Positions 13,527-54,921 of a stretch of 64,000 nucleotides of DNA are shown piece after piece. The DNA is from a virus. A model generated the notes under the pieces. The model was not told the origin of the DNA, searched no databases, and saw only the letters and a program-made list of their open reading frames with translations. The first letter of the stretch is position 1. Each line of letters opens with the position of its first letter. Where the stretch lies: the UHGV virus genome UHGV-1352853. One strand, 5' to 3'. A program made the translations under genes and the position numbers.

Positions 13527-13766
13527 TTAGCCAGCATTAAATGATGACAATACTATTCCTGGTTCCACACCTTCGGTGGCAATACCCAGGTACTCAACGT
13601 GCACTTTATCAGGAGAGGAGCACCAGGCGGAAGACAGATTCCATTCTCCGTCTGGATTAATAAGGCGAGCTTCTTCTTTAGTCTTAGCAGCTACTACTGC
13701 GGAATCGTATGTATCCCATCCTGTATTTTCTTCCTGGCTAATAAGCCATAGTTTTAATCTACTCAT
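13527..13766 (-). CDS. hypothetical protein (79 aa)
   Basis: ORF between the two RNAP II subunit genes. Confidence 0.4.
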   Translation of the reverse strand: MSRLKLWLISQEENTGWDTYDSAVVAAKTKEEARLINPDGEWNLSSAWCSSPDKVHVEYLGIATEGVEPGIVLSSFNAG

Positions 13767-14577
13767 CGTTTACTAACTCCTTATCAGCGAACTCCAGTAC
13801 AGCTTTGTTGTAACTGGTTCCCTGATAGTTGATGTGGTAGCCACAGGCATATGTACGCCCACGTTTGTCATATTTGTGAGCCAGGGAGAAGTTATTTCCT
13901 TCTTTGGTCACTAACTCCATTACTTCCTTAGCAGTACGGCTGTACTTCTCAAAGGCTTTAACACGTTTCTCATAGTCCTGACGAGTTTCACCCTCTTTGG
14001 GTTTATCCATGTTAGGGCGAGAGTCCTTTACATAGTTAGCAACGTCCCAGTTAATACAGAGACGTTGGTTATTCATACGGTTGATATGGTCAAGACAGAC
14101 ATCCATCTCATGATGGTTCTTCTTGAGGATGATGCTGCCTCTGCTTTCGTAGTAACCGGTGTCACGGTTACTCATAACAGGCTTAGGAGCACTTACGATA
14201 GGCAATGGGTACTGGAATGCTTCCAGTTCCATCTGTACATCTTCACTAATCTCATAAATAACACCGAACCTGTCGATGGTAGGGTCATAGTTGAAGCAGT
14301 CATTCTCTGCCATCTTATATAGACAGTCAGCGATGTACTGAGCATCATCTGAGTGACTCATGAGAGAGCCAATCATAGTTTGAATGTCAGCTCGTTTATG
14401 TAGGGCAATCTGCACCATTGCATCAATGAGCAGCTTATAATCAATTTCTAAATAGGCAGCAAAAGCCTTAAAGTCAATTTCTTCGGAGTCCTCGAATTCC
14501 TTCCTCATGCGAGGGAGTAATTGATTTTTGTTGAAAAGGATTTCAAGTTGCTTCTGATGTTCAATAGATGAGTACAT
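13759..14577 (-). CDS. N4-type RNA polymerase II small subunit (RNAP1, N-terminal half of T7-like RNAP)
   Basis: T/DxxGR motif YDKRGRTYACGYHINYQGTSYNKAVL matching T7 RNAP DFRGRVYAV...QG; 272 aa as N4 gp15. Confidence 0.8.
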   Translation of the reverse strand: MYSSIEHQKQLEILFNKNQLLPRMRKEFEDSEEIDFKAFAAYLEIDYKLLIDAMVQIALHKRADIQTMIGSLMSHSDDAQYIADCLYKMAENDCFNYDPTIDRFGVIYEISEDVQMELEAFQYPLPIVSAPKPVMSNRDTGYYESRGSIILKKNHHEMDVCLDHINRMNNQRLCINWDVANYVKDSRPNMDKPKEGETRQDYEKRVKAFEKYSRTAKEVMELVTKEGNNFSLAHKYDKRGRTYACGYHINYQGTSYNKAVLEFADKELVNDE

Positions 14578-14630
14578 CGCATATTCTCCTAAATGTGATT
14601 AATAACCAAAAGCTGCTGAGCAGCTATTAC

Positions 14631-17316: not shown

Positions 17317-17319
17317 CTA

Positions 17320-18269: not shown

Positions 18270-18674
18270 TTATCCCTCCAGTTGTTTAGGCAACATTGCC
18301 ATTAGTTGTTTAGCCATAGATTCACATTCATCGGTGCAATATTGCTCATCTCGCCATACACCCTCTGAGTACATGTGCAATCCTTCCAGCGGAGTACCTT
18401 TGTACTTCTCTGGGCATTTCATCAAGTCACCATAGTGAGCACAATCAAAGCCAATAGCGATTTTATCCTCTAATTGAGGAAGTGCATCCTGATAGGTAAC
18501 ACCTCCATGAACAGAAATACATTTTTCTGGGTCATAATTAGTAAAGTCATTGTCTACTAAGTCAGCAGGCAATGCTACGTAACCACAATGATGAGAACCA
18601 TCATTTACTAACAGGATTACAGCAGGTAAACCAGCTTCAGTAGTCCAGCTTTTTACAATTTTATGGGTAGTCAT
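18270..18674 (-). CDS. hypothetical early protein (134 aa)
   Basis: ORF. Confidence 0.4.
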   Translation of the reverse strand: MTTHKIVKSWTTEAGLPAVILLVNDGSHHCGYVALPADLVDNDFTNYDPEKCISVHGGVTYQDALPQLEDKIAIGFDCAHYGDLMKCPEKYKGTPLEGLHMYSEGVWRDEQYCTDECESMAKQLMAMLPKQLEG

Positions 18675-18675
18675 C

Positions 18676-18867
18676 TTATTTGTTTCCTTTATGAAGTTTA
18701 CGGATTTGTTTACGAGTAGGTTTAGCTACAAAGAAGTGGTCATAATGCTGACCATTCTTATCTTCTACAGATACCTGCCAACGGGCATTCAGTGACATCT
18801 TACTGCCCCAAGGTTGCAACGTAACAATCAACTTCTGTGAGTTATAACGGTTACATACTGTACGCAT
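18676..18867 (-). CDS. hypothetical early protein (63 aa)
   Basis: ORF. Confidence 0.35.
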   Translation of the reverse strand: MRTVCNRYNSQKLIVTLQPWGSKMSLNARWQVSVEDKNGQHYDHFFVAKPTRKQIRKLHKGNK

Positions 18868-18971
18868 AATGGTTACTCCTTCATCTAATATAAATCTATA
18901 TCTACCTGGTTACTGTTTCAGTACCCTTCGTCTAAAGATACTCAAAAAGTAGAAATAGCTTATCGTCTAGT

Positions 18972-19001
18972 TAAAAATAAAAGACTCCCCGAAGGGAGTC
19001 T
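18972..19001 (-). terminator. intrinsic terminator (AGACTCCC-CGAA-GGGAGTCT)
   Basis: 8-bp stem 18982-19001 with A-run on plus = U-run on minus, after gene ending 19011. Confidence 0.7.
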
Positions 19002-19010
19002 TATGGTTGA

Positions 19011-19397
19011 TTAGAAAGTCAGTTTACGAGCATATTTATTCTCGTCTGCTGGGATGTCAGCAGCCTCTGCTTTCACACGACGAAGCTGAACTTGCAGGTT
19101 AATGATACCTTCTTCACCTGGTTCCAGGTTCTGAGCATATTCGATTAACTGTTCCAGCAAGTCATTCTGTGCACAACGCATAGCACGGAAGTCAGCATTG
19201 CTGCTATTAGTAGGCAGCGGTTCCTGAGTATCCAGTGGAATACCAGTAGGCAATGAGATGAATTTCTCATCATCAGAGCCTTCATTAGCTACATAACCAA
19301 TGTTCAGCCAGAACTGAGCTTTAGGCTTATCAGTTTTAGCAGTAGAAGTAGCAGCAGCGTTAGATTGACCGAAAGTGAATTTTTGAATAGACATTTT
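19011..19397 (-). CDS. early protein (trimmed to MSIQKF start, about 128 aa)
   Basis: GGAGAG SD before ATG 19397; first ORF downstream of hairpin promoter P3. Confidence 0.45.
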
Positions 19398-19507
19398 GTA
19401 CTCTCCAGATAAATGATTGTTTGATTTATGGGTTTGTCCGTCGGTGACTAAACCCAAGAAAAGACTTAAGATTTCAATGATTAGTGGATGCATTTACATC
19501 ATCCATA

Positions 19508-19522
19508 AGACGCGGAGCGTCT
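19508..19522 (-). promoter_or_regulatory. putative N4 vRNAP-type hairpin early promoter (P3): AGACGC-GGA-GCGTCT
   Basis: 6-bp stem, 3-nt GGA loop, conserved 5' CCATAAG and 3' TTTTTAAGACAAACG(T/C)TTAAG flanks shared with copy at 19846; just upstream of early ORF. Confidence 0.5.
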
Positions 19523-19527
19523 GATTT

Positions 19528-19812
19528 TTAAGACAAACGTTTAAGTTGTAATTCATTTGCTTCATACATACAAAATGGGTCAATAACCCATTCACTCTCG
19601 GTCCACATCTTGGCTTCCTTACGGAACTGGCGACGTAGCTTACGGATTTGTTTCTTTGTAGGTTTAGCAGGGAATAAGTGGCAAGCAACATAGTGCTGTC
19701 TCTCTGTTACGTTAGTAATCTCTGAGAACCAAAGATTCCACTGAGAATCCATCTTACCTAACAATCCACCATTGTTACTCTTATTTGCAAACAGGGAAGT
19801 TTGAATACGCAT
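19528..19812 (-). CDS. early protein (94 aa)
   Basis: ORF downstream of hairpin promoter P2. Confidence 0.45.
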   Translation of the reverse strand: MRIQTSLFANKSNNGGLLGKMDSQWNLWFSEITNVTERQHYVACHLFPAKPTKKQIRKLRRQFRKEAKMWTESEWVIDPFCMYEANELQLKRLS

Positions 19813-19845
19813 GGTTTTATCTCCAATAGTTAAATGATATCCAAT

Positions 19846-19860
19846 AGAAGCGGAGCTTCT
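19846..19860 (-). promoter_or_regulatory. putative N4 vRNAP-type hairpin early promoter (P2): AGAAGC-GGA-GCTTCT
   Basis: 6-bp stem, GGA loop, same flanking consensus as 19508 element. Confidence 0.5.
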
Positions 19861-19866
19861 TGGTTT

Positions 19867-20208
19867 TTAAGACAAACGCTTAAGCAATTCTGCCTTAGCA
19901 GCTTTATACTCTTCCTCAATTCCAGGCCAATCTTCCCGGTCTTGAGAACCAAGCATTTCATGGGCACGGACAGCTTTCTCATACCGTTCCAGTAGTTTTT
20001 CCTTATCTGGCTCTCCTTCACAGGATTCCCATTGCCATACATGACCAGTTAGTGGAACCAGTTCTCCTTTCGTAAAGTAAGGATTATTGTCCATATTCTT
20101 GACAGTAGAATCTTCGGTAAGACAGATACGTTCTCCTTCCAATTCTCCTTCAATAATTGTTCCAACAGGAACAGCAGCAGAACCTTTGATACAACGGAAT
20201 TTAGTCAT
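19867..20208 (-). CDS. early protein (113 aa)
   Basis: ORF. Confidence 0.45.
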   Translation of the reverse strand: MTKFRCIKGSAAVPVGTIIEGELEGERICLTEDSTVKNMDNNPYFTKGELVPLTGHVWQWESCEGEPDKEKLLERYEKAVRAHEMLGSQDREDWPGIEEEYKAAKAELLKRLS

Positions 20209-20261
20209 GATTTTCTATCCTTAAAGTAGAATAACTATCTATTTAGTTGAACTATCTAATG

Positions 20262-20290
20262 TTCAAAACAGGAGACTCCGAAGAGCCTCC
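20262..20290 (-). terminator. intrinsic terminator (GGAGACTC-CGAA-GAGCCTCC)
   Basis: stem with one G-U, followed on minus by UGUUUUG. Confidence 0.5.
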
Positions 20291-20298
20291 TAGATGAC

Positions 20299-20622
20299 TT
20301 AGTCTTTAGTCAGGATGTCAATTACTTTTGAATATTCTGCGTTATAGATACGAGCGTTCTCAGAATCCTTACAGAAATCTTCAATACTTTTCTTACGCAG
20401 AGTCTCAGTCATAGCTGTTTCTTCAGCTAATTTATTAACGAATGTATGCATTTCTAATTTAGTACGAATGGCTTGTTTCTCTGCCATAGTACTTACATAT
20501 GAATTAAGCATACCTACTGCTTTAGTTGCTGTACCAAATGTATCTGCAACAGTAGTAGCAGCAGAGTTAACAGTACCCAGTAAAGTTCCTGCGGTCATAC
20601 GTACAGTAGCGGTAGTAGTCAT
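20299..20622 (-). CDS. first early protein (107 aa, coiled-coil)
   Basis: ORF 44 nt downstream of hairpin promoter P1. Confidence 0.45.
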   Translation of the reverse strand: MTTTATVRMTAGTLLGTVNSAATTVADTFGTATKAVGMLNSYVSTMAEKQAIRTKLEMHTFVNKLAEETAMTETLRKKSIEDFCKDSENARIYNAEYSKVIDILTKD

Positions 20623-20665
20623 GATGATAGCTCCAATAGTTGATGATAGGACGACATGTCCATAA

Positions 20666-20678
20666 GTTGCGGAGCAAC
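20666..20678 (-). promoter_or_regulatory. putative N4 vRNAP-type hairpin early promoter (P1): GTTGC-GGA-GCAAC
   Basis: 5-bp stem, GGA loop, preceded by conserved TCCATAAG as at 19501. Confidence 0.45.
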
Positions 20679-21037
20679 GTGTAACGTGTAAGGTGGGGTA
20701 GGGTAGTGGCTACACCGTCAACATACCGGGGGGGCTAGTTGAGTGTAAGGGTGTAGCCCCAGCCACAACACTGCTACTGTACATAGCTATCACAATTTTG
20801 ACATGCAAAAATATTATAGGCACTATCTCTATAAGCAGATAACTTTGAGGTATTAACATGAAAGATGGATGGGGTAACTATCTCCTATTCATCATAGCGT
20901 TTAATACTTAAAACCTCATATAGCTTACTATTTACAAGCAATGGTCCACCTACTCCTACAAAAACTAGGCTGTGTACTATCACTGGTTCAGGTAAGCCCT
21001 TTACTGTTACATACCACATATTAATCCTTATAAGCAG

Positions 21038-21376
21038 TTAAATAGGAAGGAGCTTTCTGGTGATGATGCGTGCTATACCAGAGTAATAGTCTGGATGGTT
21101 TGGATTACCACTACTATTTCTTACGGTAGCTTCTTTAATAAACACATGAGCATAATCACCTAATGGTATGAAGACTGACCCACCTTTTTGCAGGATAACT
21201 ATCTCTGCATTGCTGTTGGTAAGTAGCTTATGTCCTTGGGCAAAGTCTGCTAACTCTCCTGGTTCCATTATTAGTGTGGAGGTTCCATAGGTCATAATGT
21301 GGATGATTGCTTTTTCTGGTTCAGAGGAATAATGCAGTAAGTCCGTACCTTTCATCCCTAGGAGTTTAACGTTCAT
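21038..21376 (-). CDS. small-protein paralog family member F (112 aa)
   Basis: shares G..LL.N..AE.hhL..G core with neighbours. Confidence 0.4.
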   Translation of the reverse strand: MNVKLLGMKGTDLLHYSSEPEKAIIHIMTYGTSTLIMEPGELADFAQGHKLLTNSNAEIVILQKGGSVFIPLGDYAHVFIKEATVRNSSGNPNHPDYYSGIARIITRKLLPI

Positions 21377-21379
21377 ACT

Positions 21380-21664
21380 TCAGTACCTTTCCTTATAGAT
21401 GGGGGTGTTATCCTCGAATGATAGGATGTACTTGTCTGTATTAAGATGCCAAGGACTAAAGCTACCCTGCCAGGACATAGGTGTTCCTGGCTCAAGTAGA
21501 TATACTTCTGCCTTCTTATTGTATAGGAAGAGTAATCCTTGTAGCTCATGCAAGGACTGTTCATCTGGAACCAGGATAAGTACATCAGCACCTAGGTTAG
21601 CTACTTCTATATGGTGGGTGTATTCATCCCCTGGTAGCTCTGAATAAATTTTACTGATAACCAT
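21380..21664 (-). CDS. small-protein paralog family member E (94 aa)
   Basis: VLILVPDEQSLHELQGLLFLYNKKAEVYLLEPGTPMSW core. Confidence 0.5.
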   Translation of the reverse strand: MVISKIYSELPGDEYTHHIEVANLGADVLILVPDEQSLHELQGLLFLYNKKAEVYLLEPGTPMSWQGSFSPWHLNTDKYILSFEDNTPIYKERY

Positions 21665-21978
21665 TAATAGCTCTCGTCGCTAGATAAATATGAGGAAGGA
21701 TAGAGGGTAATGAGTCTACCTGTAAGAGTAGTAGCTACCATAGGTTCACAGGAGGAGAAGATGTATACAGCGACACCCTCCGGAACTTCAATGGAAGTAT
21801 CTATCCTAATAAAGGTAATAGGTGCACCTAACATTAAACAGGTTCCGATGAACTCATCTGCTTTTTCACATTGTTCATAGTACATGGTCATGGGTTTACT
21901 TATTCCCAACCATGGAGATTTACCTACCCCCAGATTAAGGGGACAGGTACTACGACTACTTAAACCGTAGAAGTGCAT
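21664..21978 (-). CDS. small-protein paralog family member D (104 aa, divergent)
   Basis: tandem position; weak core similarity. Confidence 0.35.
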   Translation of the reverse strand: MHFYGLSSRSTCPLNLGVGKSPWLGISKPMTMYYEQCEKADEFIGTCLMLGAPITFIRIDTSIEVPEGVAVYIFSSCEPMVATTLTGRLITLYPSSYLSSDESY

Positions 21979-21981
21979 GGC

Positions 21982-22299
21982 TTACTTCCTTACGTAATAG
22001 TAACGGTATTCGTCATTCTCATGGCGACTATCCCATTGGTATTCATCGGATACCATCATGAAAGGTAGAGCGTCATATGCATCGCTAAAGGAGTAGACGG
22101 AAGGTGGGACAATACATACAACCTTACGGTCATTACCCGCTAAGAATAATTGGCCCCTTACTTCATGGTAGTCCTCTAAGGTAGGAACTAGGATTACTTG
22201 CTGGGGGTTGCTGTTCATGACTTCTTCTAGAGTGAAGTCAGTTGTATATATAGACCCCTCTTCTTCAGCAAAACTGGGGATGGTCATTATAAATTTCAT
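21982..22299 (-). CDS. small-protein paralog family member C (start trimmed)
   Basis: VILVPTLEDYHEVRGQLFLAGNDRKVVCIVPPSVYSF core; ORF-track start overlaps member B. Confidence 0.45.
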   Translation of the reverse strand: MKFIMTIPSFAEEEGSIYTTDFTLEEVMNSNPQQVILVPTLEDYHEVRGQLFLAGNDRKVVCIVPPSVYSFSDAYDALPFMMVSDEYQWDSRHENDEYRYYYVRK

Positions 22300-22663: not shown

Positions 22664-22689
22664 AATTGTATACCTCCAGAAAAAGAAAT

Positions 22690-22724
22690 GGGGTAGAGCC
22701 TCTCGACCCTACCCCTTACCGTTT
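22690..22724 (-). terminator. intrinsic terminator between paralogs A and B
   Basis: GGGGTAG-11nt-CTACCCC stem followed on minus by UUUCUUUUUCU. Confidence 0.5.
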
Positions 22725-44500: not shown

Positions 44501-44562
44501 ACACAGGCTTACTGTAGAGTAAGCTTCCTATATACGATATAAGTTTGAACAGGAAACATGCT

Positions 44563-47500
44563 ATGTCAACATTTGACCGTCTGGCAGGTTTCGCAGACAG
44601 CATCACTAATGCTAAGCAAGTCGATGTCTCTACTGCAACCTCTCAGAAGCAAGCTGCACAAGGGCAAAGCCCTTTCCAATTAACCCCGGAGAATGCTTAC
44701 AATCTCCAAACCGGACGAGTAGGTAATTTAGGAATCGGTGCGTTCGAACCAGGTTCTCTTCAGGCAGATTTCACTCAAGCCTCCCCATTAGAAATTCTTA
44801 ATAAATACGGTAATGAGCAAGGTCTACAGATTATTAATAGCCGAGCTAATGCTGCTGATGCTGTACGTCAAGACTTATCTAAACAACGTACTAACGCAGA
44901 AGCATTTGGCGATACTCTTTCTGGTGTTGGTCTTGGTGTTGCTAATACCCTTGGGGGCATTGCTGCTCTTGGCACAGGTCTGGTCAATGATAATGCCGGG
45001 GCATCCATTGCTTCTGGGATGGATTGGCTGAATGAAGGTGTACATAATCTACAGTCTGATGCATTGAATGCTACCCGTAAGGTTGTTCAGAATCAGAACC
45101 AGATTTCTGCACAAAAGAACCAGAAACTATACGAACAAGACATCAAAAATGGGGAGAGCAGTTTGGTTGCCTCCTTGTCTCGCATTGGTCGTGATGCTTT
45201 TGATTCTGTTGCTAATACACTTGATAACGGTATGGCTGCTACTGATGGGCTAAGTGAAGGTGTTGGTTCCCTCTTTACTGGTGGTCCACTTATCCGTGGT
45301 GTATCTGCACTCGGCAAAGTAATGGTAGGTGGTGATAAAGCCGTTAAGGGTATTACCTTAGCTGCTGAGTTAGGTTCTCGTCCTGCACAGGTTGCATTGT
45401 CTGCTGGTCGTGTTGCTGCACCTGCTATTGCAATTGGTGGTATGGAAGCTGGTGGTGCATACCAACAGACTGCTTCTGAAATCATGAAGATGTCACATCA
45501 AGAATTAGCAAGTAAGTCTCCTGTTTATCAACAACATATTGCTGATGGTTTATCTCCTGATGAAGCTCGTCGTCAGACTGCATCTGAAACAGGTATCATT
45601 GCTGCTGGCTTAACTGCTCCGGTTGCTGCTGCTACTGGTCCACTGGTATCTAAATTCGAACTTAATCCACTTAAGGTAGGCTCACTGGCTGGTGCAGGTT
45701 CTAACATGCTACGTGAGACTGTAGAAGAAGGTATCCAGTCTGGTACTAGTCAGTTTGCACAGAACAAGGCAATTCAGGGTAATGTAGATACTAAGCGTGA
45801 TTTGCTTAAAGGTGTTGGTGAACAAGCAGGTCTTGGTGCACTCTATGGCTTCGGTAGTGCTGGTGTTGCTCAGGCTCCAGGTGCAACTGTTAAAGCTGTT
45901 GATGCTGCTGCTGGGCCTGCTTTACGTACTACTCTGGCTGGTGCTTCCCTGGTTGGTAGTGCATTAGCAAAAGCTGCTTCCCCTATTACTAACATCCTGG
46001 TTCAACGTGGTGAAGAAGTAGCTAAGCGTAATGAACAAGCATCCCCTGTATCAGATGCTACGGTTAATGCTGCTGCGCAAGAAGCTACTGCTCAAGCAGA
46101 ACAAGCACAAGCAACCGTACAGGAAGCAGTAGATGCAATGGACATTTCCCCTGAAGAGAAAGCTGCTGCTACTCAGTATGCTGCTGATTTAACTCAAGCA
46201 ATGAAGTTTGACCCAGTAGAGCTAGAACAAGCTAATCCTGCAATCCGTGAAGCTGTTTCTGGTTCCACTAACCGTGTTGAAGCTATTCAGAAGATGGCTG
46301 ACCTGGTTAATACTGCTGAAGACCCTAACGTTCAAATGGAAGCTGCAATTCAGATGTATGACAACATCATGTCTATGGATAGCTTCATTAACCGTGACCC
46401 GGGTGCTCTGGCTAATCTGGAACAAGGTTCCCCTGCTGCTAATATTGTTGACCAGTTCTCTGGTCTAATGGCTAACGTACAGAATACTCCAAAGGTACTT
46501 CGTGCATTCCGTGCCATTCATTCCATGATTCAGGAACAGGCTGAAGCAGGTAAACTGAAAGCTACTGAAGAAGCCAACCAAGCCCAAGCAAACAATATTG
46601 CTATGGCTGCTGATATGTCTCCAGAAGTACTGGATGCAGACTCAGTGAACATGGTTCTGAAGCACGCAAGTGAAGGTAAGATTACGTTAGGGAATCGTCA
46701 GCGTGCTGCCCTGCAATCTGCTGCTGCTCTATTGCAAGGAGCACGAGAATTTGACGCTAAAGCAGAAGAACTGGGCTTACGTCCTCAGGACATTGTTAGT
46801 AAACAGATTAAAACCGACGAGTCTCGTTCTAATGAAGGTCAGTACTCTGCGTTGCAACATGCTAAACGCATTCGTTCTGCGTACAACTCTGGTAACTTCG
46901 ATTTGGCTTCCGCTTATCTCGACGACTTTATGAAGTTCGCCCAGCACATGCAGAATAAGGTCGGAGCGTTGAATGAGCATCTGATTTCGGGGAATGCGGA
47001 TAAGAATAAGTCTGTTCATTATCAGGCTCTTACTCCCTCCCGTGAATGGGTACGTAGTCGTACTGGCCTCGGTGTCAATCCGTATGATACCAAGTCGGTT
47101 AAGTTTGCCCAGCAAGTAGGACTGGAGGCCAAAACCGTAGCTGATATTGCTAACGCACTTGCTACGGCTTACCCGGAGCTTAATGTTTCTCATGTGAAAG
47201 TTACCCCATTGGATTCACGTCTGGACAAACCTGCTGCCCAGGTAGTTAAAGAGTTCCGTCAAGGTGGTCTTGATGCCACTCAATCTCAACAGACTAATGA
47301 ACCAGTGAATCAGGTTGATGAAACTCCTGTTACAAAACAGGAACCAGTTACCCCTACTGTACAGACTAAACCCTCTGTTAGTGAAGCTGTTAAAACAGAA
47401 CCTGCTATTAAAGAGTCTAAACCACAGGTTGTAAAAGAACCTGAGAATCAGTCTGAAAAACAGGATGCTACCCTCACTAATGAGGATACCACTCAGGGAG

Positions 47501-50500
47501 TAGCTGAAACTAAAACGGAAATGGAAACAGTGTTCCCTGTCTATAACAACGACAAGACACCGAACCAGTTCCTGAAATCTTTTACTCTACCGGAAGAACC
47601 TAAGTCTCGTACCATTGGTTCAGAGTCCCCTTTGACTGATGTTAAGAAAGCACTGTCTTCTGTTGCTCGCTTTGAAGCATTTACTCAAAAAGAAAATAAC
47701 GCTCTCACAAGTGATGTGATTAAGCGTTATCAGGACTTATTCGATTTTGGTGAAACTCTGAAGACTACCCTGTCTGACCGTCTAGCTAAGTTCCTTGCTA
47801 ACAAGAATGTTGGTAAACGCTTTGCAGAAGGTACTGAGGCTAACCGTTGGGTAGGTGGTAAGTTACTTAATATTGTAGAGAAAGATGGTGACACCTTTAA
47901 GTTCAATGACCAGTTATTAGAGACTGCTGTACTTGCTGGTCTGCAATGGCGACTGACTGCTACACAGAATGCTGCCATTAAAGACATGAAAGACGTAGCT
48001 GCTATTACTGGTGTAGAAGCATCCTTGTTACCTGATGGTATTCTGGCTGACTTTGAGAATGCTCAGACCCTGGTTGAAGCTACTAACTCACTGGCCCAAA
48101 AGATTGAATCTTACTGGGGTTTGAATCGTAATCCAAATGCACCACTGGGTTATACCAAAGGTATCCCAATGGCAATGGCTACAGAGATTCTGTCTTCTCT
48201 TATTGAGATGGGTGAAGTTAAAGAGTCTATGCTTGATGTGTCTGAGATTGACCCAGCCTCCAACAAGACTATTGGTCTATATACCATTGAGAAGCTGGAT
48301 GATAACGACGCCATTAATAATTTCCCTACTGCTATTGAGGAAGCTGTCCTCGTAGAACCAGAAGAGAAAATGTACTTTGGTGATGACATTCCTTCCGTGG
48401 CTCAAACTCAGTTACGTAACCCTGCTGTTAAGAATACCCCAGAGCAGAGGGCTGCATTGAAAGCTGAACAAGCTACCGAGTTCCGTGTACATATGCCGAT
48501 GGTTAACTTCTATGAAGCATTGGGTCGTGACAACATTCTGGAACTGATGGGTGCTGGTACTCTTAATCCTGAACTACTGAACGTGAATACCGCTAAATCA
48601 CTGGAAGGTAAGAACCTGTCCGTATCTATGGCATATGATTCCCTGTTTGGTGTAATCAATCAAATTAAGGAACAAGAGAACGGTCTGGATACCCCTATTC
48701 ATTACGGTTACAACATGACCCGTGTAGGTCGTATGCAGATGCTTGGTAAGAACAACCCACAATCCAGCAAGCTGGTTCGTGAGGCTATTCTGCCAACCTT
48801 CTCTACTATCGACTTGAGTAATGAAAACAGCCAAACGTTCTCTGACTTCCAGTTAGGTCTGGCTCAGGCATTAGGTATCAAGGTACATAACATGTCCCGT
48901 GAAGCTATGTCTGAAAAGTTGACCAAAGCTCTGGAAGGTAATCTGAAACCTGCTGTTGATATGATGGTTGAGTTTGATAAGTCTGGGCACTTACCTGCTG
49001 ATGCAGTAGATATTCTGAAGACGTCTCTTGGTGGCGATAAATCCTTCGTAGCTCTTATGGCTCTTATGGAATATGCCCGTTACCTGAACAGTGATGACCG
49101 TGCCAACTTTAATACCCCACTGTACGTTGAAGCCGATGGTGTAACTAACGGACCAATCAACGCAATGGTATTAATGACGGGTGGTAAGTTCACTTCAGAC
49201 TGGATTAAGAATACTGCTAAAGGTGGTCTATTCTTTGGTAAAGCTGGTAAGACTATGAACGAACATCGTTCACAGGATGACAGCGTGGATTTGTATGAAG
49301 CATCTACCAACGGTCTGCAACAAGCTCTGAATGAGTTACGTACTACTTACCGTAACAACGTTCCGGTTATGAACCAGATGAATCATCTCCAAAAGTTAAT
49401 GGACCTGTTCATTAAAGACTTTAACCTGAACGAAGACGGTACTCTGGACCTGAAACGTGGTATTGCTAAAAATCCTCTGACCATTACCATCTATGGTTCC
49501 GGTGCTCGCGGTATTGCTGGCAAGATGGTTAGTGCAATTACTGATACCATCTATGAACGCTTCAGTGACGTTCTGAAAGCACGAGCTGCTGACCCTAGCA
49601 TTTCCCCAGCTATGGCAATGTTTGGTAAGGAGGCTGCGTCTGAGGCTGATGCTCAGGCCATGCTGGATACTTTCCTTACATCTATGGAAGCACTGACTGG
49701 TAATGTTCCAGTTATGCGTAAAGGTGAGTTGTCTATTCAACAGGTAGAAGGTGCTCTGACTGGTAAGTTAGACCCTCAGAAGTTTACTGTATCTGGTAAT
49801 GCTTTGAAGAACTTACAAGAGAACATGCTTCACTTGTTCGTTGAACCAATGCGTACCGGTATCCGCAATACTGTTGGAGAAGGTCTGATGCATTCTACTG
49901 AGAACTTGCAGAAGGCTACCCAGATTCAGTCTCTGGTATTGCAGGATATGTTCCAACAAGCAGTACAGACTAAGCTGGCAGAAAAAGAAAAAGACCCAAC
50001 ATGGAAGAAGGGGGATTTCTTAACACAGAAAGAACTGAATGAAATCCAGGAATCATTATCTCCACTGGCTCCAATGATTGAGACTGGTTCACAGACTTTC
50101 TACATTGCCGGTAGTGAAAACACTGATGTTGCTAACCAAGTACTGGCTACCAACTTGGATGACCGTATGCGTGTGCCAATGAGCATCTATGCTCCTTCAC
50201 AGGCAGGTGTTGCAGGTATTCCATTTATGACCATTGGTACTGGCGATGGCATGATGATGCAGACCCTTTCTACTATGAAAGGTGCTCCGAAGAATACCCT
50301 GAAAATCTTTGATGGTATGAACATTGGTATCAATGACATCACTGATGCAAGTCGTAAAGCTAACGAGGCTGTATATACTTCCTGGCAGGGGAATCCTATC
50401 AAGAATGTTTATGACTCCTTCTCTAAGTTCATGAAGAATGTAGACTTCAGCAAACTGTCTGATGAAACTAAACAGGCTATCGCTAAGTCTGCTCTGGAAT

Positions 50501-53500
50501 ATGACCAGCGTGAAGGTGCTACTGATGCCTTATTACGTGCAGGTGCTGAACAGATTGAGCGTAACTTGCGTAACATTGCTCTTGGTGTAGATATTCGCCA
50601 TAAAGTAATGAACCAGGTACAGACCACTGTTGACCAGATGGCTGCTGTGGGTGCTCCTTACATTAATAACGGTAAGATTTCTTTGGAAGGTCTGACTGTA
50701 GACCAGCAAGTAGCTAAGCTGAACGAATTGTTTGATGCTGAATTAAACAAACGTCGTGATGCAGTACGTGCTGCTAAAGCAGAACCAGTGAAAGAAGTAC
50801 CAGCAATGGAGCAGGTTGGTCGTGTACTGAAGTCTGGTGTACGTCTGCTGTCTAATACTGCTATCTCTAAGCTGGCTAAAGAGATGTCTCAGGAACAACA
50901 AGCAGTACTGAAAGAAGTACAGAAATCCCTTGCTGCTAAAGACTACAAGGTTGTTTACGGTACACCTTCTCAGTTGGATGCTTATGCTATTGAGAAGAAT
51001 ATTACTCGCCCAGCACCTGAAGATATTGAAGCTGCTGAAGCAGGTAATGCATATGGCTGGACTAACTTTGAAGATAAGACTATCTACTTAGTTACTCCTT
51101 CCTTAGAGACTCTGGTTCATGAATTGGTACATGCTTCTACTTTTGAATCTGTACTGGCTCACTATGAGGGTACTCCTAATGAAGCAGTCCAGAATATTGA
51201 AGACCTGATGAACCAATTCCGTACTCTTGATGTTAAGGATGAAACTTCGGCAGTACGTGAAGCATACGCTGATGCTCTTAATACTATTAATGGTCACTTG
51301 TCTAATGGCTTCATTGAACCAGCAATGGCTAAAGCTGCTGCACTTAACGAGTACATGGCTTGGGGCTTAACCAACCGTGAACTGATTAGTAAGCAGAAGA
51401 AAACCACTGCACTTAAGACTATGGTTCAGGCTGTGTATGAAGCAATCAAGCGTCTGATATTTGGGCGTAAGAAAGCACCAGCTAATGCAGATGATATGTT
51501 CTCCGGCTTACTGTTTAACTCATCCGTAGTTATGCGTGGTCAGGCTCCTACTGCTGCTGTAGCTAAAGATACTACCCTGTTCCATAACAAAGCATACGGT
51601 GACAATACTCGTCTGGAAGAATTAGGAAAAACCTTCGATAAGTTAATTACTGACTACATTGGTTCAGAACCAGTACAACAAGTAATTCGTAAAGGTAAGT
51701 TCTCTGATGCAGTAGTGAATGCAACTAAAGTAACTCGTGATGTTCAGGCTCATGGCTTCACTATGAATATGCAGGAACAACGTCTCTTTACTAACATCGC
51801 TGCTGCTCTGGCTACTGAAGCTGCTATTAATCCTGCTGCTTTGGCTCGTGCACAGGAATACTATACGCATGTTACCAAGAACCTGACCGTTGAAGCATTC
51901 ATGACTGACCCAGATAGTACTAACCCTGCTGACCGTTATTACGCTCAACAGAAGTTCGATACCATCATGGGTGCTAACAATATTGAGTTTGATGCACAAG
52001 GCCGTTCTTCCTTACTACCTACCTTTGTCGGTCTGGCAATGGTAAGCGAAGAAGTACGTAAAGTACTGGCAGACATTCCTGTTATGAAAGCAGATAAGCA
52101 ATCTGGTAATACTGTTGATGCAATGCTTACTAACATCGGTACTGCTGCAATGGCTAGTCTGAATGCTCGTGTAGCTGGTGATACCAAGGCTACCAATGTG
52201 CAAGAAGGTATGGATGCACTGGCTCAGACAATCATGCAGACTAGTTTAAATGCACAGTCCTTCTATGATTCCGTTGCTACTCCTAGTGGTAATGCTATTG
52301 ACCGTGCTAACCAGTATCTGGTGGACTCTATTGATGTATTGTCTACCCGTGCTTTAGAAGGTGCTCGTGAAGTTGCAGCTAATACCAAGAACCCGTTGGT
52401 TAAAGGTGCTGCTCATGCTGCACAACTGATTGCTGCCATTGCTACGGAGAAGAATGGAGCAATCGTAGCTGAAGGTGTTATGGCTGCAATGAACCAGGGT
52501 AAAGTATGGCAACCTTTCCATGACCTGGTTAATGACTTAACTGGTCGTACTAAGAGCAATGCTTCTGTATACGATTTGATTAAGGCAGTACGTGCACAGG
52601 TACAGGCTGACCGTCAACAATTCCGTGAACATTTGCCTACCACTATCGCCTCTAAGTTCAGCCGTAAACTGACTAATGAAGAGTGGAAAGCAATGCATAC
52701 CGGTATGGGTAAAACTGACTTAGCTGCCCTGCGTGACACTATGTCTTTGGCTGAAATACGTGACCTGCTGACCGACCAGAAGATTGTTGACCGTGAGGTG
52801 AATAAGCTGGAAGCAGATTTGCAGAAACAAGCTGGACGTAACTGGCCTCTAATTAGTCGTAAATCTAAGCAACTGGCTCAGTACATGATTAATGGCACAG
52901 TTGGTAATAACCTGCTGCGTAATGCTACTGCAATTTCTCGTTTGCTGGGAGAACGTCAGGCTGCACGTTCTACTGTAGATGTAGCTCAACTGGACAAATT
53001 GATTACCCTGTATGCACTGGAAGCAATGAGTAAGTCTGACCGCGAAACATTATCTTCACTGGCTCAGACAGAAGTTGATGGAATGGACTTTGCTACATCT
53101 TATCTGGTTGGGCAGCGTAAAGATGAAATGGCTAAAGCCAAATCCGATACTCGTGCAATCCTGAACCAGTACAAAGGTTACATTCCTGATGAGACTAAAC
53201 AAGGTGTTAACCTGATTGTTGCTGAAGATAGTCAATTTGCTGATTTAATTGAGAAGTCTTATGTGCGACTGGGTACTTATCAGGGTAGCTCTGCTAATCG
53301 TGGTCCAGCACGCAGCTACTACTTTGCACCAGTACAGGCACAGGCTCCTTTCTCACAGGGTATTCTACAGAACGTTCGTAATACTGCTGGTGGTGTAGAC
53401 CTTGGTACAGGCTTTACGATGGGTACAATGGTAGCTGGTCGTATCACTGACAAGCCTTCCGTAGACCGTATCACTAAAGCACTGGCTCGTGGTGAACGTG

Positions 53501-54921
53501 GTAATGAACCACTGCTGCCTGTGTATGATGACAAAGGTAATGTAGTTGCCTATGAGCAATCTATTGACCCTAACATGCTGAAGCACATTGAGGGTGAGAA
53601 CCATCTTGCTCGTGCAATTGGTGTATGGCGTGGTCGTCAGGTAGAGGAAGCTAAGGCCCAGCGTTTCAACGATATGCTGATTGAAAATCTGCATAGCATG
53701 TACGAGAACGACATTAAAATGTCTGCCTCTAATAAGTCCCAGTACGTTAACCTTCTTGGTTCTAAACTGGACCCTGTAACTGCTGATGCCCTTAAACTGA
53801 TGAACACCGAAACACGTCAGAAAGCAGAAAGTCTGTTTGGCGAAGGTGAATTGTGGGTTCGTCGTGACATGCTTAATGATGCGCTGGGTTATCGTGCAGC
53901 TTCTGTAGGTGATGCCTGGTCTGGTAATTCTCGTTGGTCACCGGAAACATTGGATACCTTCAAGAAAGCTATGTTGGGTGTCTTTGGTAACCGTGCTTAT
54001 AAGTACGTAATGGGTGGTGAGAACCTGGTTCAGAACTTAGTTAAAGAAGCCAAGACACTGATTGTAGTTAAGTCAGTAGTTGTACCTGCTGTTAACTTCT
54101 TGGCTAACCTTTACCAGATGGTTGGTCGTGGTGTACCTGTTAAGAACATTGCTAAGAGCATTCCACAGAAGACTGCTGAGATTAACCAGTACCTGAAATC
54201 TCGTCTGCGTCAGGTAGATGCAGAAGCAGAATTACGTGCAGCTACTAACCCGAACCAGATTCGTAAGCTTAAGGCTGAGATTCAGTCCATAACTGATAGC
54301 CATAAGCGTATGAGTATCTGGCCTTTGTTAGAAGCTGGTGAGTTCTCTTCAATTGCAGACGCAGGTATTGGACGTGATGACATCCTTATTACTGAAGGTA
54401 AACTTCACGAATACATGGATAAGCTGGCTGATAAGTTACCTAAGTCTGTTCGTAATGCAGGTCGTTATGCACTTATCACCAAGGATACTGCTCTATTCCA
54501 GGGTATCCAGAAGACGGTTGAGTACTCTGACTTTATTGCTAAAGCAATCATTTATGATGACTTAACTCAGCGTAAAGGTAAGACTCGTGAAGAAGCACTT
54601 GGACGTGTAACAGAAGAGTTCATTAACTATGACCGTTTGCCTGGTCGTTTCCGTGGATATATGGAAAGTGTCGGTTTAATGTGGTTCTATAACTTTAAGA
54701 TACGTTCTGCAAAAATCGCAGTGTCCATGATTCGCAACAACCCTGTACATGCAGCTATGGCTATGTTGGCTCCAACTCCTACCATGTTTGGTAATGTTGG
54801 TTTACCTATTCAGGACAACATCTTCAGTATTGCTGCACAAGGCAATCTCGGTTACTCCTGGGGCTTTGGTCAGGGGCTTCGTGCTCACAACCTAAACCCT
54901 TGGATAAATCTGGTAAACTAA
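44563..54921 (+). CDS. virion-encapsidated RNA polymerase (N4 gp50-like vRNAP), about 3,452 aa from ATG 44563
   Basis: single 10.4-kb ORF unique to N4-like phages; central region has T7-like motif A EADGVTNGPINAMVLMTGG; AGGAAA SD before ATG 44563 (ORF-track start 44545 is TTG). Confidence 0.9.
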   Translation: MSTFDRLAGFADSITNAKQVDVSTATSQKQAAQGQSPFQLTPENAYNLQTGRVGNLGIGAFEPGSLQADFTQASPLEILNKYGNEQGLQIINSRANAADAVRQDLSKQRTNAEAFGDTLSGVGLGVANTLGGIAALGTGLVNDNAGASIASGMDWLNEGVHNLQSDALNATRKVVQNQNQISAQKNQKLYEQDIKNGESSLVASLSRIGRDAFDSVANTLDNGMAATDGLSEGVGSLFTGGPLIRGVSALGKVMVGGDKAVKGITLAAELGSRPAQVALSAGRVAAPAIAIGGMEAGGAYQQTASEIMKMSHQELASKSPVYQQHIADGLSPDEARRQTASETGIIAAGLTAPVAAATGPLVSKFELNPLKVGSLAGAGSNMLRETVEEGIQSGTSQFAQNKAIQGNVDTKRDLLKGVGEQAGLGALYGFGSAGVAQAPGATVKAVDAAAGPALRTTLAGASLVGSALAKAASPITNILVQRGEEVAKRNEQASPVSDATVNAAAQEATAQAEQAQATVQEAVDAMDISPEEKAAATQYAADLTQAMKFDPVELEQANPAIREAVSGSTNRVEAIQKMADLVNTAEDPNVQMEAAIQMYDNIMSMDSFINRDPGALANLEQGSPAANIVDQFSGLMANVQNTPKVLRAFRAIHSMIQEQAEAGKLKATEEANQAQANNIAMAADMSPEVLDADSVNMVLKHASEGKITLGNRQRAALQSAAALLQGAREFDAKAEELGLRPQDIVSKQIKTDESRSNEGQYSALQHAKRIRSAYNSGNFDLASAYLDDFMKFAQHMQNKVGALNEHLISGNADKNKSVHYQALTPSREWVRSRTGLGVNPYDTKSVKFAQQVGLEAKTVADIANALATAYPELNVSHVKVTPLDSRLDKPAAQVVKEFRQGGLDATQSQQTNEPVNQVDETPVTKQEPVTPTVQTKPSVSEAVKTEPAIKESKPQVVKEPENQSEKQDATLTNEDTTQGVAETKTEMETVFPVYNNDKTPNQFLKSFTLPEEPKSRTIGSESPLTDVKKALSSVARFEAFTQKENNALTSDVIKRYQDLFDFGETLKTTLSDRLAKFLANKNVGKRFAEGTEANRWVGGKLLNIVEKDGDTFKFNDQLLETAVLAGLQWRLTATQNAAIKDMKDVAAITGVEASLLPDGILADFENAQTLVEATNSLAQKIESYWGLNRNPNAPLGYTKGIPMAMATEILSSLIEMGEVKESMLDVSEIDPASNKTIGLYTIEKLDDNDAINNFPTAIEEAVLVEPEEKMYFGDDIPSVAQTQLRNPAVKNTPEQRAALKAEQATEFRVHMPMVNFYEALGRDNILELMGAGTLNPELLNVNTAKSLEGKNLSVSMAYDSLFGVINQIKEQENGLDTPIHYGYNMTRVGRMQMLGKNNPQSSKLVREAILPTFSTIDLSNENSQTFSDFQLGLAQALGIKVHNMSREAMSEKLTKALEGNLKPAVDMMVEFDKSGHLPADAVDILKTSLGGDKSFVALMALMEYARYLNSDDRANFNTPLYVEADGVTNGPINAMVLMTGGKFTSDWIKNTAKGGLFFGKAGKTMNEHRSQDDSVDLYEASTNGLQQALNELRTTYRNNVPVMNQMNHLQKLMDLFIKDFNLNEDGTLDLKRGIAKNPLTITIYGSGARGIAGKMVSAITDTIYERFSDVLKARAADPSISPAMAMFGKEAASEADAQAMLDTFLTSMEALTGNVPVMRKGELSIQQVEGALTGKLDPQKFTVSGNALKNLQENMLHLFVEPMRTGIRNTVGEGLMHSTENLQKATQIQSLVLQDMFQQAVQTKLAEKEKDPTWKKGDFLTQKELNEIQESLSPLAPMIETGSQTFYIAGSENTDVANQVLATNLDDRMRVPMSIYAPSQAGVAGIPFMTIGTGDGMMMQTLSTMKGAPKNTLKIFDGMNIGINDITDASRKANEAVYTSWQGNPIKNVYDSFSKFMKNVDFSKLSDETKQAIAKSALEYDQREGATDALLRAGAEQIERNLRNIALGVDIRHKVMNQVQTTVDQMAAVGAPYINNGKISLEGLTVDQQVAKLNELFDAELNKRRDAVRAAKAEPVKEVPAMEQVGRVLKSGVRLLSNTAISKLAKEMSQEQQAVLKEVQKSLAAKDYKVVYGTPSQLDAYAIEKNITRPAPEDIEAAEAGNAYGWTNFEDKTIYLVTPSLETLVHELVHASTFESVLAHYEGTPNEAVQNIEDLMNQFRTLDVKDETSAVREAYADALNTINGHLSNGFIEPAMAKAAALNEYMAWGLTNRELISKQKKTTALKTMVQAVYEAIKRLIFGRKKAPANADDMFSGLLFNSSVVMRGQAPTAAVAKDTTLFHNKAYGDNTRLEELGKTFDKLITDYIGSEPVQQVIRKGKFSDAVVNATKVTRDVQAHGFTMNMQEQRLFTNIAAALATEAAINPAALARAQEYYTHVTKNLTVEAFMTDPDSTNPADRYYAQQKFDTIMGANNIEFDAQGRSSLLPTFVGLAMVSEEVRKVLADIPVMKADKQSGNTVDAMLTNIGTAAMASLNARVAGDTKATNVQEGMDALAQTIMQTSLNAQSFYDSVATPSGNAIDRANQYLVDSIDVLSTRALEGAREVAANTKNPLVKGAAHAAQLIAAIATEKNGAIVAEGVMAAMNQGKVWQPFHDLVNDLTGRTKSNASVYDLIKAVRAQVQADRQQFREHLPTTIASKFSRKLTNEEWKAMHTGMGKTDLAALRDTMSLAEIRDLLTDQKIVDREVNKLEADLQKQAGRNWPLISRKSKQLAQYMINGTVGNNLLRNATAISRLLGERQAARSTVDVAQLDKLITLYALEAMSKSDRETLSSLAQTEVDGMDFATSYLVGQRKDEMAKAKSDTRAILNQYKGYIPDETKQGVNLIVAEDSQFADLIEKSYVRLGTYQGSSANRGPARSYYFAPVQAQAPFSQGILQNVRNTAGGVDLGTGFTMGTMVAGRITDKPSVDRITKALARGERGNEPLLPVYDDKGNVVAYEQSIDPNMLKHIEGENHLARAIGVWRGRQVEEAKAQRFNDMLIENLHSMYENDIKMSASNKSQYVNLLGSKLDPVTADALKLMNTETRQKAESLFGEGELWVRRDMLNDALGYRAASVGDAWSGNSRWSPETLDTFKKAMLGVFGNRAYKYVMGGENLVQNLVKEAKTLIVVKSVVVPAVNFLANLYQMVGRGVPVKNIAKSIPQKTAEINQYLKSRLRQVDAEAELRAATNPNQIRKLKAEIQSITDSHKRMSIWPLLEAGEFSSIADAGIGRDDILITEGKLHEYMDKLADKLPKSVRNAGRYALITKDTALFQGIQKTVEYSDFIAKAIIYDDLTQRKGKTREEALGRVTEEFINYDRLPGRFRGYMESVGLMWFYNFKIRSAKIAVSMIRNNPVHAAMAMLAPTPTMFGNVGLPIQDNIFSIAAQGNLGYSWGFGQGLRAHNLNPWINLVN

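Follow-up and report, generated by a model that had tools for sequence, protein, structure and literature searches.

Three hairpins on the plus strand of the window (the whole stretch of 64,000 nucleotides that was analysed, virus genome UHGV-1352853) are very probably promoters of the virion-encapsidated RNA polymerase (vRNAP) of this phage, working like P1-P3 of phage N4. The assignment draws on the hairpin signature, on homology to the mapped N4 promoters, on conservation and covariation among relatives and on the presence of a cognate polymerase. By its top matches, which are Gamaleyavirus genomes, the window is that of a G7C-like (Gamaleyavirus) N4-like coliphage; 77 Gamaleyavirus genomes gave matches to this region. 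Many of these records begin at a point equivalent to window position ~20765. This is the genome's left end, and the minus strand of the window is genome-forward. Measured from this first-injected end, the three loop centres are at 94, 913 and 1251 nt, and the hairpins are oriented toward the early genes. Together with a fourth element at 6148 nt they are all found inside the leftmost 10% of the ~72-kb genome, as in N4 (PMC4496689). The biology is that expected for the phage group, a four-promoter layout was already predicted for the relative KP8, and no new mechanism is implied.

The three elements, which had been reported with the correct sequences and strand in the sequence-only reading (hairpins at 19508-19522, 19846-19860 and 20666-20678), are as follows.

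20660..20678, plus (template) strand: promoter A, N4 P1 homologue, with orthologues in 15 relatives and N4 flanks; CC (+2/+1) at 20660-20661, spacer ATAA, GTTGC at 20666-20670, GGA at 20671-20673 and GCAAC at 20674-20678.
19841..19860, plus strand: promoter B, internal and P2-like; CC at 19841-19842, spacer AATA, AGAAGC-GGA-GCTTCT at 19846-19860.
19503..19522, plus strand: promoter C, gp2-proximal; CC at 19503-19504, spacer ATAA, AGACGC-GGA-GCGTCT at 19508-19522.

The heptamers said to precede them (CCATAAG at 19508, CCAATAG at 19846 and CCATAAG at 20666) were found; the stem already takes in the final base of the one at 20666 and the final two bases of each of the others. By analogy with N4, transcription is predicted to start at 20661 (A), 19842 (B) and 19504 (C), the RNA running leftward along the minus strand.

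In N4 the vRNAP determinants comprise a 3-nt loop with A or G at -11, G at -10 and A at -12, a C:G closing pair, -8G, +1C, a purine at -1 and GTP at +1/+2 (PMC4496689). Every one of these was found in all three window hairpins. The stems are 6 (C), 6 (B) and 5 (A) bp long, within the 5-7 bp range, and each carries a 3-nt GGA loop closed by C(-9):G(-13). The template CC lies 11-12 nt from the loop centre in all three and is followed by A (the -1 purine). Folding of the single-stranded DNA returned precisely these hairpins, at -5.1 to -5.6 kcal/mol; N4 P1 and P2 gave -5.2. The 7-mer GCGGAGC, which occurs in the window at the three hairpins only, was dropped as a significance test by itself because 2.06 copies are expected. 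The full signature combines CC at +1/+2 and -8G with a G[G/A]A loop on a perfect stem no shorter than 5 bp. It was present in 3 copies, whereas 200 dinucleotide-preserving shuffles averaged 0.04 and not one of them reached 3. The three copies share one strand and lie within 1.2 kb. A relaxed scan of the window (4/5 stem pairs, C at +1) revealed no convincing hairpin promoter beyond these three sites, the region upstream of the 113-aa ORF included; the remaining matches were GAA or GGA loops in coding regions with imperfect stems.

Homology to N4 was evident at the level of individual promoters. N4 P1 (nt 91-105) reads GTTGC-TTC-GCAAC-TTATGGAC, and its stem and flanks are common to window 20660-20678, the shared flanks of promoter A extending over N4 nt 77-116. 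The stem of N4 P2 (AGAAGC-TCC-GCTTCT-TTTGG, nt 558-572) is identical to that of promoter B at 19846-19860, and promoter C (loop centre 19515) occupies the N4 P2 position directly 5' of the gp2 homologue. The trio had been equated with N4 P1-P3. By both position and sequence, the element centred on 20672 is the P1 homologue; that centred on 19853 has the P2 stem, and the P3 counterpart is at 14618, outside the trio. The trio consists of a P1 homologue, an additional P2-like promoter of internal location and a gp2-proximal promoter in the position of N4 P2.

Elements at corresponding places were present in 15 Gamaleyavirus relatives and N4, in a set from which two sites were missing (the SP5M locus ends before the gp15 site and P1 of PD205 is cut at an assembly junction); for the K57alpha1.2 locus, where the annotation seems offset from the sequence, the DNA alone was used. 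Orthologues of promoter A, found in the 15 relatives by their flanks alone, have either a GTTGC/GCAAC or a CATGC/GCATG stem between identical flanks. Promoter B has orthologues in SP5M, U1G, St11Ph5 and Moonfish, and the core of promoter C is identical in G7C, IME11, PhAPEC7, pSb-1, UE-M6, PGN829.1 and CU10EC. In an alignment of 34 distinct sequences 96% of the cells pair, a percentage that is partly circular since the set was picked by a perfect 5-bp stem; the flank-based P1 comparison alone is free of this circularity. Double changes were seen at 5 of the 6 pairs, and the covariation score was 0.509 versus 0.135, a value exceeded in none of 500 shuffles. The stem thus appears free to vary as long as pairing is kept. 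In the same 34 sequences, window trio included, the -8G of the 5' stem arm (alignment column 12) is unvarying, as are the CC columns.

Some natural variants break the N4 rules: G7C, pSb-1 and CU10EC have a T:A closing pair and K57alpha1.2 has an AGA loop (-10A). Such variants, together with the TGA loop of the fourth element described below, imply that the N4 rules may not transfer exactly. Points that weigh against the promoter assignment are these rule-breaking variants, a T-run on the plus strand after two of the hairpins and a substitution in the vRNAP (K267 to N). None of these promoters is annotated in the GenBank records of the relatives inspected; transcript-mapping data for this phage or any Gamaleyavirus were not found in the literature consulted, and promoters go unmentioned in the EC1-UPM paper and in that on N4-like diversity.

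The polymerase itself is encoded in the window.

44545..54921, plus strand: vRNAP gene, 3458 aa, 67% identical to N4 gp50.

The identity to N4 rises to 71% in the mini-vRNAP region. All base-contacting residues of N4 gp50 are kept. The recognition residues K114, R119, W129, D901 and R904 are conserved, as are K849 and K850; K267, one of two intercalating-hairpin lysines, is N in the window protein. This vRNAP is the enzyme predicted to read the hairpin promoters.

The hairpins are interspersed with the following early genes and terminators.

20299..20622, minus strand: gp1 homologue, 107 aa (phrog_5020), the first early gene, 3' of promoter A.
20265..20292, minus strand: intrinsic terminator after gp1 (-16.8 kcal/mol), its 10-bp stem capped by a UUCG loop and followed by a U-run.
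19867..20208, minus strand: 113-aa ORF (phrog_24403), between the gp1 terminator and promoter B, with no hairpin promoter of its own.
19528..19812, minus strand: 94-aa ORF, downstream of promoter B.
19011..19493, minus strand: gp2 homologue (cofactor of N4 RNAPII), 160 aa as long ORF, 68% identical to N4 gp2.
18981..19002, minus strand: intrinsic terminator after gp2 (-15.0 kcal/mol, z = -4.5).

The gp1 homologue is 67% identical to N4 gp1 and 97-99% to Gamaleyavirus gp1, and its terminator is homologous to N4 nt 493-520. For the gp2 homologue, the family profile begins at residue 34, which corresponds to a Shine-Dalgarno-preceded ATG at 19395. The hairpins had been placed 30-45 nt upstream of consecutive early ORFs. 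Measured from the 5' edge of the hairpin, this distance holds for the gp1 homologue (44 nt to its ATG) and for the 94-aa ORF (34 nt; the predicted start 19842 is 30 nt 5' of this ATG). For the gp2 homologue it does not, the interval being 15 nt to the ATG at 19493 or 113 nt to that at 19395. Nor are the ORFs consecutive, as the 113-aa ORF, without a hairpin, sits between gp1 and the second hairpin. The 94-aa ORF appears composite: its first part (residues 1-67) matches ORFs of 68 aa that belong to the gp1.2 family in IME11, SP5M and U1G, and residues 68-94 form an unrelated tail ending in LKRLS. No homologue of this tail (19546-19610) was present among the 16 fetched loci.

The LKRLS terminus is also where two of the three hairpins share a flanking repeat, described in the sequence-only reading as part of an extended promoter consensus.

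19522..19545, plus strand: first copy of a 24-mer, TGATTTTTAAGACAAACGTTTAAG; on the minus strand CTTAAACGTTTGTCTTAA followed by AAATCA.
19861..19884, plus strand: second copy, TGGTTTTTAAGACAAACGCTTAAG; the final five codons (LKRLS) of the 113-aa ORF, its stop codon and an A-tract.

The repeat is real, the copies being 92% identical (22 of 24 positions), and it was also seen beside a promoter in eight relatives, as might be expected of a functional upstream extension. That it serves as one is nevertheless very improbable. On the minus strand the first copy consists of the last five codons (LKRLS) of the 94-aa ORF, the stop codon and an A-tract, so that both copies encode the C-terminus of the upstream ORF. 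The second copy has its orthologues at the 3' terminus of the 113-aa ORF family in the eight relatives, where the 24-mer always accompanies this family regardless of the promoter that follows. It is missing from most orthologous promoters: those of promoter C in relatives such as SP5M, IME11, St11Ph5, pSb-1, UE-M6 and HK2 have unrelated sequence past the GGTTTT tract, promoter A and N4 P1-P3 do without it, and conservation of the N4 promoters stops at -17 (PMC4496689). The 94-aa and 113-aa ORFs were also considered as paralogues, which was ruled out by a BLASTP alignment limited to the terminal LKRLS. As read from sequence comparison, the 24-mer is a junction, the 3' termini of upstream ORFs moved by recombination, and not a recognition element.

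The N4 P3 homologue, which had been sought within the trio, is a fourth hairpin overlooked in the earlier reading.

14606..14625, plus strand: fourth element, N4 P3 homologue, CC-AAAA-GCTGC-TGA-GCAGC, with the hairpin at 14611-14625.
13759..14577, minus strand: gp15 homologue (RNAP1, RNAPII subunit), 272 aa, with orthologues annotated RNAP1 in relatives.

N4 P3 itself lies at N4 nt 4547-4561, 5' of gp15. The window element (loop centre 14618) is situated 30 nt 5' of the RNAP1 homologue, and its start is predicted at 14607. Its loop is TGA instead of GGA, a G to T change at -10 that departs from the N4 loop rule. A TGA loop was not seen at this site in any relative examined; all have GGA, including two IMG/VR contigs (one scan) and the closest relative, CU10EC (98.8% identical). 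The change at -10 would be expected to give a weaker or inactive promoter.

The T-runs raise the question of a different role for promoters B and C. In a consensus scan the hairpins at 19508 and 19846 were called terminator-like on the plus strand, the stem being followed by GATTTTT or TGGTTTTT, and they could be intrinsic terminators of plus-strand (antisense, genome-leftward) transcription, instead of or besides being promoters. A T-tract (4 or more T in the 12 nt past the stem) accompanies 23 of 26 internal Gamaleyavirus promoters, 0 of 17 of the P1 type and 0 of 16 of the P3 type. Given this distribution, the tract is conserved and specific to one promoter class, and the N4 promoter model does not account for it. 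However, between the genome end and a point beyond 13 kb, every open reading frame homologous to an annotated gene of the relatives is on the minus strand, which leaves an antisense terminator no evident transcription unit to act on. Upstream of the hairpins the plus strand carries no homologue of a known gene. The terminator shape (GC-rich stem-loop plus T-run) is moreover absent at 20666, and this hairpin and the experimentally mapped N4 P1-P3 have the same core without a T-run. The stems are short (5-6 bp), the T-run starts 2-3 nt past the stem, and the tract overlaps the place where the upstream ORFs have their TAA stop codon and A-tract. A terminator role would also leave the invariant GGA loop, the -8G and the CC at a fixed 11-12 nt unexplained. 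We consider it highly unlikely.

It is less likely still, and hardly credible, that the hairpins act as RNA stem-loops in the early mRNAs (in processing, stability or translational control) and not as DNA promoters. The compensatory stem changes would be equally compatible with an RNA hairpin on the minus-strand transcript, and promoters B and C are inside the transcribed early region, 3' of promoter A. Hairpin A, on the other hand, is 94 nt from the genome end, 5' of every known start site. The conserved asymmetry is the one read on the template DNA (GGA and not UCC, -8G, and CC at +1/+2) and fits the residues contacted by the N4 vRNAP; in addition, the homologous elements in N4 are mapped initiation sites (PMC4496689). 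Rfam matched only two tRNAs in the window, at 57 kb, and no family in the hairpin region. The homology to N4 P1 and P2, the determinants, the compensatory changes and the cognate vRNAP together argue for template-strand early promoters of the N4 vRNAP type, as had been proposed.

If these promoters work as N4 biochemistry suggests, negative supercoiling by gyrase would extrude the short inverted repeats. The hairpin on the template (plus) strand would be stabilised by the GGA loop, through a sheared G:A pair, and by the C:G closing pair, and host SSB would melt the hairpin on the opposite strand. The vRNAP would then recognise two loop bases (-11G and -10G) and the stem base -8G, and would initiate, in a rifampicin-resistant manner, with GTP opposite the template C that lies 11 nt away from the centre of the loop. 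RNA from A would enter the gp1 homologue, that from B the 94-aa ORF and that from C the gp2 homologue. What is carried over here from N4 is the extrusion, the dependence on SSB and the precise start positions.

The arrangement yields an early transcription map that comprises three canonical promoters and a single variant, the predicted start site of each, and two terminators. Some 60 natural variants of the promoter, drawn from 16 genomes, furthermore constitute a natural mutagenesis series for the recognition rules of the N4 vRNAP, in which the stem varies freely and the fixed parts are -8G, the loop and +1/+2; the exceptions that stand out are -10T (window), -10A (K57alpha1.2) and the T:A closing pair (G7C, pSb-1 and CU10EC). 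A more speculative idea, which we regard as rather doubtful, is that the internal promoters of G7C-like phages belong to a conserved stop codon/A-tract/CCA/hairpin module that bounds exchangeable early-gene cassettes, with the hairpins doubling as recombination hot spots. It is based on unrelated ORFs that terminate at the same few nucleotides before a hairpin, on a gp1-gp2 interval that, depending on the relative, holds from 1 to 2 promoter-plus-ORF units, and on the chimeric 94-aa ORF with its final five codons from the 3' end of another gene. If true, hairpins that extrude as cruciforms on supercoiled DNA would shuffle early genes, and their template-strand T-tract might assist extrusion or stop antisense transcription.

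Compared with N4 P1-P3, which are read by gp50, the window elements have the same template-strand stem of 5-7 bp, 3-nt loop with a central purine and 4-nt A/T spacer, the same -10G/-12A, C:G closing pair, -8G and +1C/+2C, and the same downstream genes (gp1, gp2 and RNAP1). They differ in that the P1 loop is GAA in N4 and GGA in the window, that the gp1-gp2 interval holds one promoter in N4 and two in the window with extra ORFs between, that the internal promoters of the window have an upstream template-strand T-tract that N4 lacks, and that the P3 homologue has -10T. The window elements are predicted from sequence, whereas those of N4 were mapped experimentally. For the Klebsiella phage KP8, a Gamaleyavirus relative, putative promoters P1-P4 have been listed (PMC6950046, Table 1). 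Their layout is alike, with P1 at ~90-110 nt, a pair placed before or around the gp2 homologue and a further promoter that precedes RNAP1 subunit B, and the core of KP8 P2 (AAGACGCTCCGCGTCTTATGGA) is the same as window 19503-19522 (PMC6950046). The phage, its host and the intervening ORFs are different, and the KP8 promoters are likewise predicted only by similarity to N4. Early hairpin promoters of the Pseudomonas phage LUZ7 were mapped by ONT-cappable-seq (PMC9163698). LUZ7 belongs to a distant genus and differs in having stems down to 4 bp, nine early start sites and initiation 13-14 nt from the hairpin centre; it resembles the window in its 3-nt-loop hairpins, in G-preferring initiation and in several, some closely spaced, promoters before the gene for the middle-transcription cofactor (PMC9163698).

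Hairpin promoters of the type used by the virion RNA polymerase (vRNAP, gp50) of coliphage N4 had been proposed at three places from the sequence alone, and all three hairpins were found at exactly those coordinates (promoters A, B and C below). N4 promoters are conserved from -17 to +1, where inverted repeats enclose a GC-rich heptamer that has its centre at -11. Extrusion and stability need the loop-closing pair, the loop 5'G and the loop 3'A; the polymerase specifically recognises -11A/G, -10G, -8G and +1C; and at initiation +1 and +2 each pair with a GTP, with a purine at -1 (PMC4496689). On the template (plus) strand A, B and C all read C(+2) C(+1) A(-1), a 4-nt A/T spacer and then the stem from -5/-17, with the core G(-8) C(-9) G(-10) G(-11) A(-12) G(-13). 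RNA from the predicted starts would run leftward, on the minus strand. The GCGGAGC heptamer alone was not in significant excess (3 observed vs 2.06 expected). The full signature combines a perfectly paired stem of 5 bp or more with a G[G/A]A loop, -8G, and CC at +1/+2; it occurred 3 times in the window against a mean of 0.04 in 200 dinucleotide-preserving shuffles, none of which reached 3. In single-stranded DNA folding each hairpin formed as predicted at -5.1 to -5.6 kcal/mol; N4 P1 and P2 gave -5.2. The elements and their putative transcription units are as follows.

20666-20678, plus strand as template: promoter A, GTTGC-GGA-GCAAC, predicted start 20661; putative minus-strand unit gp1 (20622-20299) to a terminator (20292-20265).
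20208-19867, minus strand: 113-aa ORF without a promoter of its own.
19846-19860, plus strand as template: promoter B, AGAAGC-GGA-GCTTCT, predicted start 19842; putative minus-strand unit 94-aa ORF (19812-19528).
19508-19522, plus strand as template: promoter C, AGACGC-GGA-GCGTCT, predicted start 19504; putative minus-strand unit gp2 (19493 or 19395 to 19011) to a terminator (19002-18981).
After the gp2 terminator, minus strand: about 4.3 kb of small ORFs.
14611-14625, plus strand as template: fourth, variant element, predicted start 14607; putative minus-strand unit RNAP1 (14577-13759).

The 113-aa ORF is presumably reached by read-through. Translation of gp2 may begin at 19493 or at 19395: the 33-codon N-terminal extension (19395-19493, minus strand) starts only 11 nt downstream of the predicted transcription start and lacks a Shine-Dalgarno sequence, yet its protein sequence is conserved across all relatives and N4; the internal ATG at 19395 is favoured by the PHROG profile and by a strong Shine-Dalgarno site. 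Across window 13000-24000, sigma-70-like promoter matches were depleted (13 vs 32.2 +/- 6.3 in shuffles) and terminator-like sites enriched (20 vs 5.5 +/- 2.2).

The window encodes a vRNAP of 3458 aa (44545-54921) with 67% identity to N4 gp50. In a pairwise alignment with gp50, whose offset was checked by the agreement of the N4 residue letters with the published numbering, the promoter-contacting residues K114, R119, W129, D901, R904 and K849/K850 were kept, as were the catalytic D559 and D951; in the intercalating hairpin, N replaces K267. W129 is the residue that stacks on -11.

The 2-kb region around the hairpins matched 77 phage records (identity 85-96%, coverage patchy), nearly all of them Escherichia/Shigella Gamaleyaviruses, i.e. 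G7C-like N4-like phages of the Schitoviridae. The matches end at about 20765, the exact start of many linear relative records, and N4 nt 1-90 are homologous to the reverse complement of 20679-20765 (about 20679-20770 includes a G7 run). It follows that the genome reads forward along the minus strand of the window, with its physical left end at 20765. The window carries on past this point with right-end genes and is therefore a circularly permuted (or concatemer-type) assembly in which the terminal repeat has collapsed. Elsewhere, at 57017-57174 on the minus strand, two tRNA genes lie side by side: a tRNA-Ile (anticodon AAT) and one to which ARAGORN assigned an abnormal 2-nt anticodon (Rfam tRNA score 39.9 bits).

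Early regions from 15 Gamaleyavirus relatives, G7C among them, and from N4 were compared. In the relatives the same scan revealed an element roughly 95 nt in from the left end, either one or two in the gp1-gp2 interval, of which the last lay directly upstream of gp2 in all relatives scanned, and one upstream of RNAP1; the SP5M locus ends before the RNAP1 site and P1 of PD205 is cut by an assembly junction. Among 34 distinct aligned 27-mers CC, -8G, the loop A and C at -14 were invariant. The stems varied with pairing kept: 96% of cells pair, and both-sided changes occurred in 5 of 6 pairs. The covariation score was 0.509 vs 0.135 in shuffles (0/500 reached 0.509), and at most 0.115 with the partner slid. 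Because this set had been selected for perfect stems, P1 orthologues were also found by their flanks alone. These showed two stem types in an otherwise identical context, GTTGC/GCAAC in the window, G7C, CU10EC and N4, and CATGC/GCATG in the others. Several elements break the N4 rules: the loop is closed by a T:A pair (GCTGT-GGA-ACAGC) in G7C (L003, 802), pSb-1 (L012, 7272) and CU10EC (L016, 7279), it is AGA (-10A) in K57alpha1.2 (L005, 7010), and its closing pair is a T-G mismatch in IME11 (L008, 7265). The deposited annotation of L005 (OY979416.1, Klebsiella phage vB_Kpl_K57alpha1.2) appears shifted relative to its sequence, with the gp1/gp2 region labelled primase, Sak4 and SSB and every CDS flagged as a pseudogene.

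The loop centred at 14618 is TGA instead of GGA, so that -10 is T; in N4 the loop 5'G is required for extrusion and recognition alike (PMC4496689). Among all relatives examined TGA occurred only in the window. The equivalent site carried GGA in all of them, among them CU10EC (98.8% identity to the window over 600 bp here) and two contigs from IMG/VR. Either the TGA is a base-calling error, or it is a mutation private to this phage that would be expected to make the RNAPII operon promoter weaker.

A template-strand T-tract, at least 4 T within 12 nt after the hairpin, typically (T)GGTTTT(T)A, followed 23 of 26 Gamaleyavirus internal promoters (19523-19530 and 19861-19869 in the window). It was found at 0/17 P1-type and 0/16 P3-type elements and is absent at N4 P2. 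Unrelated upstream ORFs have their stop codons in or beside it. On account of this tract a consensus scan scores the 19508 and 19846 hairpins as plus-strand terminators. That this is their main role is unlikely, since no homologue of a known gene lies upstream on the plus strand, the P1 element lacks the tract, and termination leaves the conserved asymmetric core unaccounted for. As part of a promoter the T-tract is a feature unexplained by the N4 model; it could stem from shared ancestry of a duplicated promoter module, ease extrusion as an A/T-rich flank, or block antisense transcription.

The sequence-only reading had further included in an extended consensus a 22-mer shared by two of the sites; the shared sequence is a 24-mer, present at 19522-19545 and 19861-19884 (92% identical). 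In the coding (minus) orientation it is CTTAA(A/G)CGTTTGTCTTAA and then A's, and supplies the final five codons (LKRLS) and the stop of both the 94-aa and the 113-aa ORF, whose proteins share no similarity besides this ending. The 113-aa ORF family has the LKRLS-encoding ending in eight relatives. In the 94-aa ORF, similarity to 68-aa ORFs of IME11, SP5M and U1G is confined to residues 1-67; for residues 68-89 the compared loci contained no homologue, and the unmatched 27-residue tail ends in LKRLS. The 94-aa ORF thus looks chimeric, its last five codons and stop apparently being those of the neighbouring 113-aa family. Window 19496-19545 shares 94% identity with the promoter next to gp2 in PhAPEC7, in which the 24-mer closes a 113-aa-family gene; at orthologous promoters of other relatives the sequence past a short GGTTTT tract is unrelated. 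As it consists of ORF endings, follows the 113-aa family and is missing from most orthologous promoters, the 24-mer is best read, from these comparisons, as a recombination scar or carried-along ORF end, not a recognition element.

The trio had also been equated with N4 P1-P3. The stretch of N4 that contains P1 (nt 77-116; P1 is GTTGC-TTC-GCAAC-TTATGGAC, RNA-like strand) aligns with window 20653-20692, flanks included, and differs solely in the central loop base (template GAA in N4, GGA here). N4 P2 (AGAAGC-TCC-GCTTCT-TTTGG, nt 558-572) has the stem of 19846-19860; its place directly upstream of gp2 is occupied in the window by the 19508 hairpin, whose downstream ORF (160 aa) is 68% identical to N4 gp2. 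N4 P3 (AGCTGC-TCC-GCAGCT-TTTGG, nt 4547-4561) lies just upstream of gp15/RNAP1, and its homologue is the fourth hairpin, which the earlier list had left off, 30 nt upstream of a 272-aa RNAP1 homologue. The trio is therefore not P1-P3; it comprises a P1 homologue, an extra, internal P2-like promoter and a promoter in the P2 position. The core identification as N4 vRNAP-type hairpin promoters was almost certainly correct; the type of element is an established one, recognised here in a further genome. These promoters are not annotated in the GenBank records of the relatives inspected; such hairpins are routinely predicted by N4 similarity in N4-like genome papers (PMC3715699; PMC6027278) and were mapped experimentally in LUZ7 (PMC9163698). 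For the related Klebsiella phage KP8 a published table gives four putative promoters in the same layout as in the window, one with a core identical to 19503-19522 (PMC6950046).
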